From a virus, in the IMG/VR virus record IMGVR_UViG_3300008448_011250, positions 22,600 through 86,599 of that record: DNA of 64,000 nucleotides; one strand, given 5' to 3'. Made by a program: the position numbers and the translations under genes. Shown in pieces: positions 7,666 through 55,487 of the stretch. The notes below the pieces were generated by a model. The model saw nothing but the letters and a program-made list of their open reading frames with translations. It was not told the DNA's origin and did no database searches. Each line of letters opens with the position of its first letter. Within the stretch, counting starts at the first letter, position 1.

Positions 7666-8292
7666 ATGAAAAAATTAGAAAATATACTTGCAGAAAATAT
7701 GCGCCGATTTGGTACCAAGAATCTAAATGAACAAGAAGAACAAGACTTTCTTAATGTATATCTAGAAGATTTTAAAAAACAAGGTTGGACATTGGAGTCT
7801 GGAGTTGCAAAAGGTGTTGGAGGTATGACTGACGGACGGAGTACAAATACATTAACAAAAAATGATATGCAAATTATTTTTACCAGCAATGCACTAACAG
7901 GGATTAAAGTTTCTGTTAAAATATTTCCATCTGATATGGGTAGTGATAATTTGCAAAATAAAGATTTAGCAAATGCATTTAAGGCATATAATCATAAGAC
8001 TCCTCCGGATATAATAAAACTTCCTCGACCACACGAATCTGGAGAATTCAAATTTTGGTATGCGACAGTAAATTATTCAACTGTTGGCAAAACAAAAGAA
8101 TCTACGCCATTTTACAAATATTATGCTGATATCATTAAACTTTCTCAAATTAGTGATAAATTTTCAGCAGTTAATAACATGAATGTAAAAGATCAATTAA
8201 AAACTGCCGGCAGCGCATTAAAAACAGGTTTTGGCCAATTGGCAGGAAAAGCAAAAGCTGCAATTGCCAAAACAAATGCAACGCCAGAATAA
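7666..8292 (+). CDS. Hypothetical protein with LAENMRRFGTKNLxE leader (putative virion internal protein)
   Basis: 13-aa leader identical to that of 27951..28385; class II promoter upstream. Confidence 0.55.
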   Translation: MKKLENILAENMRRFGTKNLNEQEEQDFLNVYLEDFKKQGWTLESGVAKGVGGMTDGRSTNTLTKNDMQIIFTSNALTGIKVSVKIFPSDMGSDNLQNKDLANAFKAYNHKTPPDIIKLPRPHESGEFKFWYATVNYSTVGKTKESTPFYKYYADIIKLSQISDKFSAVNNMNVKDQLKTAGSALKTGFGQLAGKAKAAIAKTNATPE

Positions 8293-49251: not shown

Positions 49252-49630
49252 GAAATCAGCACACACGGGAATGTCCCCGAAGGATCGTTCTATCAACTTA
49301 ATGGACAAATTCATTTCAAAGAATGCACGTAACCAAAGTCAACAACCTAAACAACCTGCACTTAGAAAAGATCCTAACATTCCAATTCATATGTGGCCAT
49401 TGAAAGATCAAATTGAATATTGGGATACACGTTCAGCAGAAGATTGGTTTAAAGATAAGTATCCGGTATATTCATATTGGATCGATGAAGTAAAAACAGA
49501 AAGCAAAGTACATTCGACATTCTTCGCAGATCAGACTCTTAAATTAAAACCAATGTTAATGGAAATGTATGATGCTGCTACACCAGTAAAAGAAGCTGTT
49601 AGACAACTTCGTAAGCACGGAATATACTAA
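49244..49630 (+). CDS. Hypothetical protein
   Basis: 128 aa; TAATG-coupled to the HNH gene. Confidence 0.55.
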   Translation: MGKKSAHTGMSPKDRSINLMDKFISKNARNQSQQPKQPALRKDPNIPIHMWPLKDQIEYWDTRSAEDWFKDKYPVYSYWIDEVKTESKVHSTFFADQTLKLKPMLMEMYDAATPVKEAVRQLRKHGIY

Positions 49631-50184
49631 TGGAAGAAAAGCAGTACAAGTACGTATATGGTATAGGTAAAACAGCCTTAGACATACCTGAAAGTGAAAT
49701 TCGGTATGCCATGGAAAATACTAAATCAAATGCTGAAGCTGCTCGTTTTTTAAAAGTATCATTCACAACATATAAAAAGTATGCACGACTCTATACGGAT
49801 CGAGAAACTGGTAAGACACTTTATGAATTGCATAAGAATCAATTTGGAGTCGGCATACCAAAAGATGTTCAAAAAGCCAATAAAGGTATATACAGCATAA
49901 CAAATATACTTGAAGGTAAGCATCCTAACTATCCAACATGGAAACTTCGTAACAGATTATTAGCATTAGGTATATTTAAAGAAGAATGTGCAAGCTGCGG
50001 ATATTCAGAACGCAGAATAACAGATGATACAGTTCCATTGCTCTTAGATCATATAGACGGTGATGAAACTAATCATGTTGTAGAGAATTTGCAAATGCTT
50101 TGCTTCAATTGTTATTATCAACAAACCGGTAATCCTTTCAATCATGACAAAGAACGTTATTGGAATTATAATTTATTAGAATGA
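49630..50184 (+). CDS. HNH endonuclease-domain protein with N-terminal HTH
   Basis: SNAEAARFLKVSFTTY; CASCG...LDHIDGDETN...NLQMLCFNC. Confidence 0.8.
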   Translation: MEEKQYKYVYGIGKTALDIPESEIRYAMENTKSNAEAARFLKVSFTTYKKYARLYTDRETGKTLYELHKNQFGVGIPKDVQKANKGIYSITNILEGKHPNYPTWKLRNRLLALGIFKEECASCGYSERRITDDTVPLLLDHIDGDETNHVVENLQMLCFNCYYQQTGNPFNHDKERYWNYNLLE

Positions 50185-50192
50185 TATTTATT
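50184..50192 (+). promoter_or_regulatory. Class II promoter
   Basis: ATATTTATT upstream of the paralogous-leader trio. Confidence 0.6.
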
Positions 50193-50211
50193 ATAAAGTA
50201 TAAGGAATATC

Positions 50212-50562
50212 ATGCTTAAATTATTACAACGTTTAATTCAATTATTTATGAAGGGCGGCAAAACACCTGGTGGTCGAATGATAGCTCGAGATATATCCAA
50301 ATCGCAAAGATTAAAGCAATTTCAAACTATGCTAGAAACAAATTCTCAATATCGTAGAAAATATCAAGCATTAATGCAACAAGGCAAAGCTGGAAGACAA
50401 GAACAAATAAAATTTCTTAAAGATTATGTAGCTGGTCGCAAAAAAATGACAGATTATGTAAAACCATCTAAATACGATAAAAAATGGGGAATTAATCGAG
50501 ATTATACTACTAGCGCTAGAACAAAAAATATACACGGAGGCGAAGGCTCTGGGGGTTGGTAA
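50212..50562 (+). CDS. LIxLFxKGGK-leader protein 1
   Basis: MLKLLQRLIQLFMKGGKTPGGRMI; basic. Confidence 0.6.
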   Translation: MLKLLQRLIQLFMKGGKTPGGRMIARDISKSQRLKQFQTMLETNSQYRRKYQALMQQGKAGRQEQIKFLKDYVAGRKKMTDYVKPSKYDKKWGINRDYTTSARTKNIHGGEGSGGW

Positions 50563-51782
50563 TGCGACTATTACAAACATTAGTACGATCTTTAATTAAA
50601 TTGTTTTCCAAAGGTGGTAAAATCAAAGGTGGTAAATTTATTCCACCTAATCCAACAGCTATTAAAAATTTACAAAAGCTAGAAAGACTACAACAAACTA
50701 ATCCGGAAGTATGGAAGAAGTTATCAAAATTACCAAAACAAGAACAAATTGAAATTTTAAAAAAAACAAAACAAGGTAAGCTATCAATATCACAACTAAT
50801 TGATAAAGTAAAATCTGCAGGAAGAAAAATTAAAGCACGTGCAGTAACACCAATTGGATACAATTTATCAAAACCTTTTGGTATTCCATTAGAAATACTT
50901 TTACCTAAGATTGGACCTAAATATCAATCACTTCGAAATCGTTATGATGCGTGGTACGTATACAATAATGTTCCACAAAAATACAATTCATTAATAAAAA
51001 TAGGTACCCATACAGACGGATTACCAGCATATAGTATAAAAAATTTTACAATTGCAAAAAATGAAATTGATGCTATAATACGTAATCCAAAACAAAAAGA
51101 CATATTAACAACATTTAACTTTGGTGGGGTACATGGCAACGGCGGTGCATATAAAGGTGTTGATAAAAAAGGAAACTTTATTGTCTTTTATGACCATTGG
51201 GACTTACAACCTTTAAAGGGGTTAGTTAATCGATTAGGTAAAAAACTGAAATTGTCAAAAACACAAACAGATAAAATTGCCAATTGGGAAGTAGGCGGAA
51301 AACCTTTTTGGACTAAGAATAAATTGTATTATGATGATGCTGGAAATGTATTTAGAGCTGATGGCAAAACGCCATTATATCAAACTAAAGGTACAATGTA
51401 TAAAGATATAACAACGGCCCCGGACCAAGCAATGCTAAATGTTAAAAATGTTAATAAAAGAAAATCTGCATTACAGCGTTTAGGTAAAAAAGAAGTTACG
51501 GTATATTCAACGGAGCCAATAACACCAGAAACGTTGTCTGCTATGTTAGGCGAATGGGGAACGCATCTTAAATATAGTAAATTCAAATCAACAGCTATGA
51601 TAGCAACCGGTGCATTTGCAGGATTAGGTGCATTAGCATCATATATTCTTAGTAAAGATGATGACCAAAGACGTAAAGTTGGTGAGTACATGATAAAAAA
51701 TAAATTATCACAAAAAGATCTCAATGATAAACTTCAAGATAAACAATTTGCATCTAGACTAGATAAACAAATAGGGAAATGA
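50562..51782 (+). CDS. LIxLFxKGGK-leader protein 2 with C-terminal hydrophobic segment
   Basis: LVRSLIKLFSKGGKIKGGKFIPPNPT; central YDHWDLQP domain; MIATGAFAGLGALASYIL. Confidence 0.65.
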   Translation: MRLLQTLVRSLIKLFSKGGKIKGGKFIPPNPTAIKNLQKLERLQQTNPEVWKKLSKLPKQEQIEILKKTKQGKLSISQLIDKVKSAGRKIKARAVTPIGYNLSKPFGIPLEILLPKIGPKYQSLRNRYDAWYVYNNVPQKYNSLIKIGTHTDGLPAYSIKNFTIAKNEIDAIIRNPKQKDILTTFNFGGVHGNGGAYKGVDKKGNFIVFYDHWDLQPLKGLVNRLGKKLKLSKTQTDKIANWEVGGKPFWTKNKLYYDDAGNVFRADGKTPLYQTKGTMYKDITTAPDQAMLNVKNVNKRKSALQRLGKKEVTVYSTEPITPETLSAMLGEWGTHLKYSKFKSTAMIATGAFAGLGALASYILSKDDDQRRKVGEYMIKNKLSQKDLNDKLQDKQFASRLDKQIGK

Positions 51783-51830
51783 TGATATGAGACAATTATT
51801 ACGAGCTTTAATTAAATTGTTTTCCAAAGG
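50590..51830 (+). repeat. 25-bp direct repeat (50590-50614 and 51806-51830)
   Basis: CTTTAATTAAATTGTTTTCCAAAGG in both leader-coding regions. Confidence 0.9.
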
Positions 51831-52866
51831 AGGAAAAACAAAGGGTGGCAAATTCATTGCACCCAATCCTACTATCGTTAAGCGATTATCTAGTGTTCAA
51901 CGTTTAGAGCAAGAAGCTCCATTAGTTTGGAAATCATTATCTAATAAATCAACTGCCGATATTGTTAGTACACTTAAACAAATTAAAACAGGTAAGCTTA
52001 CTGCAAAAGATATTGTAGCCACAAAAAAATTATCACCAGTTGGGTCACATGTACAGACAAAGGCGCCAACCGGTTGGTCAAAATTCGAACCGCCGAAAGA
52101 TTTTAAATGGTCAATGCCAAATCCTCCAGTTACTGGAGCTACGCTGCATAAACCAATTGTTCCTAAGAATATACACCTATCTCATGTATTTCTAAATAAA
52201 CGTAATGAATTAATGTTAAATAAGGTATTCAATGATCTTGCAAAACAAATGGGAGAAAAAATTGAAGGTAAACTTATGGGTGGAGCCCAAGGAGCTGCAA
52301 TGCGTACGGAAAGAGGACGTATTTTAAAACTTACTAGCAATCCGCAGGAAGTTGCATCTGCATTGCGCGCCCGGCAAAGAACTACTGCAAAACACGTAAT
52401 AAAACCTTATAGCATAAGCAAAATAACAATAAATGGAGAATCGACTCAATATTACGTAATATTAATGGATGAGATAACAGTGCTATCCGATCGAGAGCAA
52501 AAATTATGGAATATTATTCAATCAGATTTTTTAAATCTTCGATCAGATTTCACAAATAAAGAAATAGCGAACCGCGTAATTGAAAGATTAAAAGCTGGAG
52601 TTTACTCGGGCTTTACGGTAAATGAAATTGACAATTTCATGAAAAAAATATTACCACAACGCCAATCGATTTTAAAAGATTTTGGAAAATTAAAAATACA
52701 TGGCGCAGAAGCACATGCCGGCAATGTAGGTTTTGATCGTAATGGTCGATTTAAACATTTTGATTCTTGGAATTTCTTAAAACAAGAACCCATGTTGAAA
52801 AAAATTAATCGCGGGTCAGCATATAACGTTAAAATAGATCCCAACATGATAAATCAGATACAATAA
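51787..52866 (+). CDS. LIxLFxKGGK-leader protein 3 with kinase-like domain
   Basis: LMGGAQGAAM (Gly loop), ILKLT, ILMDEI, EAHAGNVGF...KHFD. Confidence 0.6.
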   Translation: MRQLLRALIKLFSKGGKTKGGKFIAPNPTIVKRLSSVQRLEQEAPLVWKSLSNKSTADIVSTLKQIKTGKLTAKDIVATKKLSPVGSHVQTKAPTGWSKFEPPKDFKWSMPNPPVTGATLHKPIVPKNIHLSHVFLNKRNELMLNKVFNDLAKQMGEKIEGKLMGGAQGAAMRTERGRILKLTSNPQEVASALRARQRTTAKHVIKPYSISKITINGESTQYYVILMDEITVLSDREQKLWNIIQSDFLNLRSDFTNKEIANRVIERLKAGVYSGFTVNEIDNFMKKILPQRQSILKDFGKLKIHGAEAHAGNVGFDRNGRFKHFDSWNFLKQEPMLKKINRGSAYNVKIDPNMINQIQ

Positions 52867-52867
52867 T

Positions 52868-53617
52868 ATGATATCACTTAAAACATTGATTGTAGAAGGA
52901 CGTTATGATAGTTTGGTAACTAAGCTATCTAATACATTATTAAAAATCATCAAAGACAGTTATGCTGCAACAAAAGATCCGGAAGGACGTTTTGCAGGAG
53001 AAAAGATTTACTTCAAACAAGATGAAGAAGTTCCATTGATTGATGATGACAAGAAGCAACGTCACATATATTTTGAAGAAGTAGAAAACATGGATATTCC
53101 TGTTGAGTTTTACTTACAACTCAAAGTACAATGGATTGACGGGTTCAATGATTTCAAAGCTGGAGGAGATGCATATAACTCCGATAAACGAGACTCAGAT
53201 GAATTGCCATTAATAGAAGTACGATTTCAATTTGATTCGGCAGAGTATCCGCGCATATTGAGTGAAGTTGCAATGGAACTAAGAGACATACTTCGACATG
53301 AAATTGAACATGTAACACAAAGTGGTTGGAACTTAATTGCTAGCAAATATCTACGTTCAGATATGGGACTTCGTGCTAAGATTGAATCAGGAGAATTACC
53401 ACCAGTTCGATACTTTTTATTGCCCAAAGAAATTCCAGCAATGATACATGGATTATATTCAAAAGCTAAAAAATCAAAACAACCATTTCAGCAAGTTGTC
53501 AATAATTATTTAAGTATATGGGTTGATAACAACACCATAACTGATAAAGAAAAAGAACAAATATTAGCAACATGGAGGACATATCTTCCTAAGTTAGCAA
53601 TACGTCAGGAGTTGTAA
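52868..53617 (+). CDS. HExxH zinc-metallopeptidase-like protein with MISLKTLIVE leader
   Basis: LRHEIEHVTQ...YFLLPKEIPA. Confidence 0.6.
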   Translation: MISLKTLIVEGRYDSLVTKLSNTLLKIIKDSYAATKDPEGRFAGEKIYFKQDEEVPLIDDDKKQRHIYFEEVENMDIPVEFYLQLKVQWIDGFNDFKAGGDAYNSDKRDSDELPLIEVRFQFDSAEYPRILSEVAMELRDILRHEIEHVTQSGWNLIASKYLRSDMGLRAKIESGELPPVRYFLLPKEIPAMIHGLYSKAKKSKQPFQQVVNNYLSIWVDNNTITDKEKEQILATWRTYLPKLAIRQEL

Positions 53618-54054
53618 TGCAATATATTGATGAATCAGATCCGTGTTGGTCTGGATATGAAATGATCGGAATGAAGAAAAAAGGTGGACGCAAAGTTCCT
53701 AACTGCGTTCCAATCAATGAAGCAGATGGATATTGTCCAAGCTGTTTAATTGAATACATTAAAAAACATGCAGATCTAGATGAATATATTGATATTGCAT
53801 ATCCAGGAGTAAATGAATCAGAATATCAAGGACGCAAAGTTAAACTTGGCAAACCAATGCAAGGCGATGTTAAGAAATTCAAAGTCTACGTTAAGAACGC
53901 TAAAGGTAACGTTGTAAAGGTCAACTTTGGAGACCCTAATATGAGAATACGTAAGAACAATCCTGCACGTAGGCGTTCATTTAGAGCAAGACACCGTTGT
54001 CATACAGCAAATGATAGAACCTCAGCACGTTATTGGTCTTGTCGTAAATGGTAA
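53617..54054 (+). CDS. Modular basic phage protein
   Basis: CWSGY...VPNCVP module and KVNFGDPNM...SFRARHRC...YWSC module, separated by xxE sites. Confidence 0.65.
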   Translation: MQYIDESDPCWSGYEMIGMKKKGGRKVPNCVPINEADGYCPSCLIEYIKKHADLDEYIDIAYPGVNESEYQGRKVKLGKPMQGDVKKFKVYVKNAKGNVVKVNFGDPNMRIRKNNPARRRSFRARHRCHTANDRTSARYWSCRKW

Positions 54055-54204: not shown

Positions 54205-55487
54205 AACAGTTATTATTTTTATTCTTATTGGTTTCATCTTTTGCATACACCCAATGCAATCAATATCAAATATATGAAAGCTTTACTAGCACAGTTACAA
54301 CACAAGGCGGAACGTGGGCTGTAAACTCAATGATTGCAGTTACATCGCCAGTACGTACTGGAACTCATGCAATTGGATTTAATGGAACGGGTGATTGGAT
54401 ACGCACTCCGCAAATTGCAAATCCAGGCGTATTAACTTTTTGGTATCGTAGAAGTTCAAACACAACTGCTTGGACCTTAAACATACAGACATCGCCAGAT
54501 GGAACAACTTGGACGACTCGAGGATCAATCACAACGGTTACTAATGCATATGCTCAATACACGCTTAACATTGGTGCTTTGGGTTTAACTAATGTATTCA
54601 TACGTTTATTAGACGCGCGAGCATCTGGAGCACATGAAAGATATATAGATGATTTCGGATTGACGTCTACATCAGCTAGTTCGAACACACTTATTCCTAT
54701 TTTATCAGCTTGTAGCCAAACTCTTAATTCTGCATTAACATATAGAATTACAGATGATGGCGGCCCGGCAGGCCCTACATCCGTTGGGTATACAAATAGT
54801 GTCGATAGAATACTAACCTTAACACCATCTGATGTTACACAAAAATTAAATCTTTCTTTCACACAATTAGATTTAGAAACCACTTATGATTTCTTATACG
54901 TATATGATGGTGCAAATACATCGGCGCCATTGTTAGCTACACTTAATGGTTCAACGCTTCCCGCAGACATCATGGCAACTAATTCTGCAGGACAATTAAC
55001 ATTGAGGTGGACAACTGATATTTCGAATGTAGGAACATGGGGCGGGTTTTTTGCAAATGCAACTTCAGTTACTGCATTGCCTGTAGAACTTTTATATTTC
55101 GAAGGAGTTCCATATCCTGCATTCAACATGTTGAAATGGGCTACCGCATCTGAGAAAGATGCATCGCATTTTGTAGTTGAACGATCTGCAGATGGAGAAC
55201 AATGGATTGCAGTAGGAGAACGAGCAGCTGCTGGCAATTCTACGCAAACACAAAACTATTCATACTTAGATGTCTTTAATGAATTTAACATACATTATTA
55301 TAGATTAATGCAATATGATATAGATGGTGCACTAGATATATATGGCCCGATTGCAATTGACAATACACGTAAAACAAAACAAGTTGTTAAATGGGTAAAT
55401 TCATTAGGACAAAAAGTTGGGACTGAATATAAAGGTTTAGTATTTGAAATATACGAAGACGGAACCAGTAAAAAAATAATCAGATAA
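54201..55487 (+). CDS. Secreted Bacteroidota-type protein with CUB-like domain and T9SS-CTD-like tail
   Basis: Signal peptide ending ...AYT|QCN; DLETTYDFLYVYDG...GQLTLRWTTD; LPVELLYFEG; NSLGQ...YEDGTSKKI. Confidence 0.75.
   Translation: MKQLLFLFLLVSSFAYTQCNQYQIYESFTSTVTTQGGTWAVNSMIAVTSPVRTGTHAIGFNGTGDWIRTPQIANPGVLTFWYRRSSNTTAWTLNIQTSPDGTTWTTRGSITTVTNAYAQYTLNIGALGLTNVFIRLLDARASGAHERYIDDFGLTSTSASSNTLIPILSACSQTLNSALTYRITDDGGPAGPTSVGYTNSVDRILTLTPSDVTQKLNLSFTQLDLETTYDFLYVYDGANTSAPLLATLNGSTLPADIMATNSAGQLTLRWTTDISNVGTWGGFFANATSVTALPVELLYFEGVPYPAFNMLKWATASEKDASHFVVERSADGEQWIAVGERAAAGNSTQTQNYSYLDVFNEFNIHYYRLMQYDIDGALDIYGPIAIDNTRKTKQVVKWVNSLGQKVGTEYKGLVFEIYEDGTSKKIIR

Follow-up and report, generated by a model that had tools for sequence, protein, structure and literature searches.

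The three adjacent genes at positions 50212-52866 of the window, by which we mean the whole 64,000-nucleotide stretch analysed (bases 22600-86599 of the virus record IMGVR_UViG_3300008448_011250), belong to a well-delimited modular accessory family. Each protein of this family consists of a basic N-terminal domain of about 90 amino acids, a flexible linker, and an exchangeable C-terminal payload, and the gene cassettes have been gained, lost, and re-headed by recombination at a single site. The N-terminal domain, hereafter the module, is new, and it probably serves as an address tag. Our preferred reading, to which we assign a probability of about 0.35, is that the address is the phage head and that the trio proteins would be loaded into the virion by analogy with the internal proteins and Alt of phage T4.

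The genes, all on the + strand, are g1 (50212-50562), g2 (50562-51782), and g3 (51787-52866). They abut and form one tight unit with the next two genes. An earlier sequence-only reading of the window had described three adjacent genes with a common leader, and ORF (open reading frame) calls and alignment bear this out. The g1 product (116 amino acids, isoelectric point (pI) 10.5) is little beyond the module itself with a short tail ending GGW, and it has orthologues in L004, L016, L017, and P0024. The g2 product (406 amino acids, net charge +42) carries the module at residues 1-96 (50562-50849, + strand), made up of a leader helix, a short basic hairpin, and four further helices; there follow a disordered linker, a core marked by TPIGY, NRYDAW, WDLQP, and GGKPFW (approximately residues 90-320), a hydrophobic Gly/Ala-rich helix (345-363), and a helical tail. 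In the g3 product (359 amino acids, net charge +32) the module occupies residues 1-98 (51787-52080, + strand), and a disordered linker leads to a kinase-like domain of APH/ChoK/ePK type at approximately residues 137-359. The start of g2, placed earlier at TTG 50556, is most likely ATG 50562, which overlaps the g1 stop codon as TAATG; with this start g1, g2, and g3 all open M-x-x-L-L.

The leaders are also related in their DNA. The exact 25-nt repeat reported for genes 2 and 3, CTTTAATTAAATTGTTTTCCAAAGG, was recovered within the g2 leader (50590-50614, + strand) and the g3 leader (51806-51830, + strand) at two sites in the window only, with 0 expected from 100 shuffles. The leaders also make up a family of 78-nt direct repeats, with copies at 50220, 50579, and 51795 (identities of 62, 100, and 85%), and no fourth copy of the leader was found in the whole 86.6-kb record. 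The promoter proposed before the trio corresponds to a real, recurrent promoter-like motif. Its copy at 50184-50197 (+ strand), ATATTTATTATAAA, ends 14 nt upstream of the g1 ATG and is a variant with one mismatch from ATATTTATWTWAAA, which occurs 9 times against 2.5 expected, on the + strand in every case. The same motif is found upstream of the tail sheath and tube genes, the ribonucleotide reductase (RNR) and GroEL genes, and a glycosyltransferase gene. The 5' part of the copy before g1 is conserved sequence from the junction between the two genes that border the cassettes.

In an alignment of 20 module-bearing proteins the module spans 85-95 amino acids. Its parts are, in order, an amphipathic first helix (M..LL..LI.LF.KGG), a short basic hairpin (K.G[KR].[IV]..N), and helices ending GK[LI][TS]. 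In the AlphaFold2 (AF2) model of g2, residues 1-86 form a helix bundle with a predicted local distance difference test (pLDDT) score of 80-89, and the disordered linker comes next. Two details of the sequence-only reading thus change in scale: g2 and g3, said to be alignable for about 70 amino acids, do share their N-terminus, but its true length is some 85-95 amino acids and includes all three genes; and the leader pattern LIxLFxKGGK-x-x-GG is present in the trio, but across the family conservation is limited to the first GG and the G of the second pair. When the g2 and g3 families were compared with hhalign, the N-modules aligned and the C-terminal domains gave nothing. Because this profile-profile alignment covers the module only, g2 and g3 are not full-length paralogues. 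The complete divergence after the leader noted earlier therefore stands, and full-length homology among the trio was not found.

Searches of the module against Pfam, PHROG, PDB, and the Atlas gave no match, the best PDB value not falling below E 0.4. OmdA was considered as a possible family and rejected, the similarity being sub-threshold and present in only 2 of 11 members. Among 1.84 billion representative proteins, profile searching with HMMER returned 15 hits, 13 of them true relatives (E 5e-23 to 9e-5), these being clusters at 50% identity. The other two, P0028 and P0029, are false positives, being repeat proteins whose scores add up from numerous matches of 0-6 bits each. In IMG/VR we found no relative of g3, and the module search gave one other contig with the module.

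The 13 relatives carry eight C-terminal types that are unconnected by BLASTP. Types 1 to 3 are those of g1, g2, and g3. Type 4 is a domain of about 330 amino acids with an HE[IT]AH (HExxH) motif (P0025, P0027, P0030), for which there was only a sub-threshold match to M48. Types 5 to 8 are four shorter ones (P0026, P0031, P0034, P0036); P0026 and P0036, which have a short RRGE motif in common, are possibly distant relatives. Building an N-terminal profile and cataloguing the attached domains had been proposed as the check on whether the leader is reused, and these eight types show that it is. In a metagenomic protein, P0032 (94 amino acids), the N-module is joined to a sequence that matches the C-terminus of a 212-aa protein encoded upstream in L004; the fusion arose either naturally, by recombination, or as a chimera during assembly.

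All copies that could be placed sit at one hot spot. On its left is a conserved HNH-endonuclease-like gene (49630-50184, + strand), and on its right a conserved core gene for an acidic 249-aa protein with an HEIEH motif (52868-53617, + strand), which lies outside the cassette family. The window has g1, g2, and g3 at this site, L004 has g1 and g2, L016 has a 179-aa gene followed by g1 and g2, and L015 and L033 each have one HExxH-type gene. In 34 of the 37 IMG/VR loci found via the 249-aa gene the site is empty, and the HNH stop is separated from the 249-aa ATG by an 11-nt spacer, TATTTATTAAT. This junction, at 50185-50211 of the window and around the start of the 249-aa gene in L019-L054, is the insertion hot spot. 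The 249-aa family comprises more than 471 clusters (67-96% identical among the 120 listed) compared with 13 for the module. Given the empty sites and this difference in cluster number, the module genes are rare accessories at a fixed site of a widespread group.

No module-specific partner gene travels with the cassettes, and each of the flanking genes also occurs in cassette-less relatives. Since cassettes come and go without an accompanying gene, the module would have to recognise something that all phages of the group, or their hosts, already provide. The 249-aa gene was considered as a dedicated partner and rejected, as it forms more than 471 clusters and occurs in 34 of 37 loci without an adjacent cassette. 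The idea that it is a leaderless copy of the HExxH payload was rejected too, the alignment (E 0.1) being confined to the region of the motif. Its product is without a family assignment, the HEIEH motif is invariant, and the protein begins with a T4 CTS-like (capsid targeting sequence) start, MISLKTLIVE-G. At the hot spot of L052 there is a different insert, a gene related to that of the basic 145-aa protein encoded at 53617-54054 of the window. Its sequence includes the motifs CW.GY...G.KKKGGRKVPNCVP and, at the C-terminus, RRRSFRARHRC; the protein matches several PHROGs with no assigned function, and in L015 it forms the C-terminal part of a 293-aa protein.

Comparison of near-identical phages revealed how the cassettes move. 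The segment 51776-52847 (+ strand) is absent from the L004 phage, a gene-sized indel that removes or adds exactly g3 within flanking DNA that is 94% identical. The junctions of this indel share ATGATAT, a 7-nt microhomology at the gene borders. The leaders record a second kind of event. Over the first 30 codons g2 and g3 are 81% identical in amino acids and 83% in nucleotides, while g2 and its L016 orthologue are 44% and 57% identical, the whole proteins being about 69% identical. As the start of g2 is closer to g3 than to its own orthologue, the leader was exchanged between cassettes of different payload type. The earlier suggestion of shuffling through the 25-nt repeat is supported for the leader by the mosaic start of g2, but not for the g3 indel, whose junction is ATGATAT and not the repeat. 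The broader proposal of swappable payloads is supported by the eight types, the single site, the gene-sized indel, and the leader mosaicism.

A second variable spot was seen 1.4 kb downstream (54229-55080), where the N-terminal domain of a protein with a type IX secretion system (T9SS) tail is replaced between the window and L004; the C-terminal sorting domain of this protein and the flanking genes are still 90-94% identical to L004.

These observations bear on whether the module is an address at all. It could be an ancestral domain with a structural, regulatory, or oligomerisation role in a single paralogous family, the C-termini having been acquired by ordinary domain accretion where the genome permits it. 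In keeping with this, the module is a folded domain of about 90 amino acids and not a short peptide, the g1-type proteins are the module alone and are conserved as such, and the family is small (13 clusters at 50% identity). However, a reusable module better accounts for eight unconnected C-termini in a small, young family, all at one site, and for the exchange of leaders between payload types, and the TPIGY payload occurs elsewhere with other N-termini. We consider this explanation quite unlikely.

The g2 core has 33 invariant positions in 20 sequences, with the landmarks TPIGY, NRxDAW, NFGG.HGNG, F.D.WDLQP, and GGKPFW. The domain gave no match in Pfam, PHROG, or PDB. Foldseek gave none, and the aligner VIA returned only matches to the helical ends, at Z below 5; these helical ends dominated the searches. 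Against BFVD there was one unnamed protein at E 0.012. A Colicin M cluster suggested for the core by the Atlas was set aside as a match at chance level, the Atlas scores being below 0.9.

Without the module, the core is found in two settings. In the first it occurs in proteins of 360 to 474 amino acids, some of which start M..IIITE.Q, like a T4 CTS. In the second it lies within multi-domain proteins of 738 to 1567 amino acids in other phages, and these giant proteins adjoin a virion structural protein, contain a tail-protein segment, or are encoded near the large terminase gene. A different common leader was observed in another phage (L007, 2261-10722), where four adjacent large proteins (578-837 amino acids) encoded next to the large terminase gene start MALLKKYQDGG, MLYNKVKKFQPGKG, MMLYNKIGKYQKGKT, and MALLKKYQKGN; one of the four ends in a TPIGY/WDLQP domain of the g2 type.

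The description of g2 as a WDLQP body with a C-terminal hydrophobic helix holds for the domain, but the helix (residues 345-363), whose Kyte-Doolittle mean over 19 residues is 1.68, is borderline for spanning a membrane. This helix is one of several features that would suit a membrane address. The amphipathic, cationic first helix and the basic hairpin would then tie the proteins to the host's cytoplasmic membrane during infection, where the payloads would act on envelope or lipid-linked substrates, or else in lysis control or superinfection exclusion. Hydrophobic moments of 0.71-0.79 were calculated for the first helix, whose mean hydrophobicity is near 0, the Lys-rich KGGK-type hairpin comes next, and a lysozyme-like LysM gene lies 1.7 kb upstream of the cassette. 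Kinases of the APH/ChoK type, which the g3 payload resembles, often phosphorylate small or lipid-linked molecules. Contrary to this role, AF2 packs the first helix into the confident bundle (pLDDT 80-89) and does not leave it free, several TPIGY homologues have a marginal hydrophobic helix or none, and anchoring at the membrane leaves the strongly basic character of every payload fold unexplained. We regard a membrane address as possible but on the unlikely side.

The g3 payload probably adopts a kinase-like fold, as judged from its structural model. In Foldseek, APH(2'') enzymes fill nearly all of the top rows (E about 1e-3, probability 0.8-0.9), and the independent aligner VIA placed the N-lobes of APH, ChoK, and protein kinases on residues 137-231 in 37 of 50 rows, at Z 4.4-6.7. 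A few VIA rows span both kinase lobes. The kinase-like body claimed earlier therefore finds consistent kinase-type matches with two aligners, but the matches are weak; because the g3 model has a pLDDT of 58 and none of the matches reaches Z 8, the fold is only probable. Pfam gave no hit for g3. In the five family members the Gly-rich loop, a Lys, a Glu, H-x-G-N, and two Asp residues are invariant. The catalytic-loop Asp of kinases (HxDxxxxN or DxHxxN) is missing in all five; the invariant E308 stands at its place, giving EAHxGN compared with the kinase DxHxxN, and H310, G312, N313, D317, and D326 are also invariant. The payload thus resembles the APH/choline-kinase phosphotransferases in its structural matches and invariant kinase-type residues, and differs from them in the Glu at the position of the catalytic-loop Asp and in the lack of a Pfam match.

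The record that carries the trio is 86.6 kb long with an estimated completeness of 46% (CheckV), the + strand of the window carries every gene, and the GC content is about 33%. The gene product at L012:312-1988, the major capsid protein, is a homologue of T4 gp23, matching gp23 chains at E 5e-27 to 2e-26, and a PHROG major head protein and tail sheath were also found. The record further encodes the T4-like replication proteins UvsX, a DnaB-type helicase, and a family-B polymerase, together with RNR, GroEL, and ThyX. Most of the public sequencing runs in which the locus was found are metagenomes from lakes or other fresh waters, and none of those listed is an RNA data set. A separate metagenome scan, made with a narrow alignment, reached close relatives only. 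Searches of cultured-phage records gave zero matches, by DNA or by tblastn with g2. We read the source as a large uncultured freshwater T4-type myophage, and the host is probably a member of the Bacteroidota. In two lake-type runs the order g1-g2-g3 was confirmed on independent contigs. The summed depth of the flanking core genes was approximately tenfold that of the cassette. A contig-layout joint in one lake run skips 50193-53572 and was not used as evidence.

In a phage of this type, we infer that the module would act as a plug-and-play address domain whose most likely destination is the DNA-filled T4-type head. The kinase-like, HExxH, and putatively membrane-active TPIGY/WDLQP payloads would be packaged there and enter the next host together with the DNA, and the tag would be a folded basic domain in place of a short, cleaved CTS. 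The head is favoured by the T4-type capsid, the basic proteins, the virion-linked occurrence of the g2 payload elsewhere, the T4 CTS-like starts of some other proteins with that payload domain, and the tail-gene promoter-like motif. The charge of the trio stands out from the rest of the genome. Among 88 ORFs, g1, g3, and g2 rank 1st, 3rd, and 4th by pI (genome median 5.8), and g2 (+42), g3 (+32), and g1 (+18) rank 1st, 2nd, and 4th by net charge. All module-bearing relatives have a pI of 9.9-10.6, payloads included.

The same charge could point to a nucleic-acid tether, in which the module binds phage or host DNA or RNA in the cell and brings enzymes for takeover or counter-defence, with the proteins left unpackaged. 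In all members the module has a net charge of +8 to +16 per 88 residues, several small basic members such as P0031 and P0026 have low-complexity K/T/P tails, and the genes share their accessory, hypervariable character with many counter-defence genes. The module has, however, no detectable similarity to DNA- or RNA-binding families, and a tether fits poorly with the membrane-like helix of g2 and with the presence of its domain in giant proteins of virion-gene neighbourhoods. Such a role appears rather improbable.

Several results also weigh against loading into the head. The basic charge and the amphipathic first helix suit membrane or nucleic-acid binding equally well, and TPIGY-domain proteins elsewhere are not invariably basic. 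The trio lies in the replication and auxiliary region and not in the head-gene block. The promoter-like motif is no proof of late timing, because RNR and GroEL have it too. In 20 proteins no conserved (L/I)xE was found in the first 30 residues or at the border between module and payload, and the module does not fit the T4 route through CTS and prohead protease. Neighbouring genes do have CTS-like starts, unlike the module, for example the MISLKTLIVE-G of the 249-aa protein. It is conceivable, but unlikely, that the module is an undescribed cargo-loading domain that docks interchangeable enzymes to the packaged DNA or the inner head with no cleavable CTS. If true, such a domain would constitute a second, protease-independent route of effector loading in T4-type phages, readable from sequence alone.

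A T4 CTS-like start of the form M..L..L[LI].E was seen in 5 of 102 predicted proteins (47531, 47860, 52868, 5989, and 7666), the lysozyme-like LysM protein included. The proteins at 7666 and 27951 have the start motif LAENMRRFGTKNL in common.

The internal proteins of T4 are the textbook case of diverse basic proteins with an N-terminal tag, and T4 ipII and ipIII lie near the lysozyme gene. Overall the trio locus is most like this internal-protein/CTS system and the polymorphic and polyvalent effector families, and is a member of none of them. With IPI, IPII, IPIII, and Alt, which are diverse and have only the CTS in common (PMC3012670), it shares the T4-type capsid and proteins that are dispensable, variable, and basic and have only an N-terminal element in common. 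Neither set of genes lies in the head-gene block, and both differ among closely related phages. The T4 CTS is a peptide of approximately ten residues that is cut at (L/I)xE by the prohead protease, according to the account in PMC3012670 (Repoila et al. 1994 as cited there). The putative tag of the trio is instead a folded domain of about 90 amino acids without the conserved Glu site, and there is no sequence similarity to the T4 proteins.

With polymorphic toxins and polyvalent proteins (Iyer et al. 2017, PMC5512222) the trio shares a conserved N-terminal delivery part, swappable enzymatic C-termini, and recombination. The g2 payload domain occurs in giant multi-domain proteins of virion-gene neighbourhoods in other phages. 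The trio proteins, however, have one payload each compared with 2-15 domains in polyvalent proteins, and no known polyvalent marker domains were detected. The analogy with polymorphic toxins drawn in the sequence-only reading fails at the immunity gene. No cognate immunity gene lies directly downstream, where the only neighbour is the 249-aa core gene, and no variable immunity-like gene follows each cassette. The turnover at the site resembles that of the hyperplastic regions of T4-like phages with their promoter early stem-loop (PeSL) cassettes (Arbiol et al. 2010, PMC2839356; PMC4122927), in which gene-sized orphan indels likewise occur at fixed intergenic sites and the cassette carries its own promoter-like motif. 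Unlike PeSL, no stem-loop or terminator-like site was found at the cassette borders, the g3 junction is a 7-nt microhomology, and the homology patch that was clearly exchanged lies inside the coding leader.

Phage-delivered proteins are known, but outside a few model phages their cargo is unpredictable. The module provides a sequence-defined mark of a hypervariable accessory set at one hot spot of a widespread uncultured freshwater group. If it is an address tag, for the virion or the membrane, it would offer a handle for cataloguing exchangeable effectors and a portable tag for foreign proteins, and two uncharacterised payload families, the TPIGY/WDLQP and the Glu-variant kinase-like domains, would gain a functional context. 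Function aside, the locus is a clean natural case of cassette gain, cassette loss, and leader exchange in near-identical phages.

A further family with a common N-terminus was observed upstream in the same record (L012, 9932-15607). Here four consecutive paralogues of 439-502 amino acids all start MPNRW[PA][IV]A[SN]GNWS. This tail-region family, with its variable bodies, probably represents fibres.

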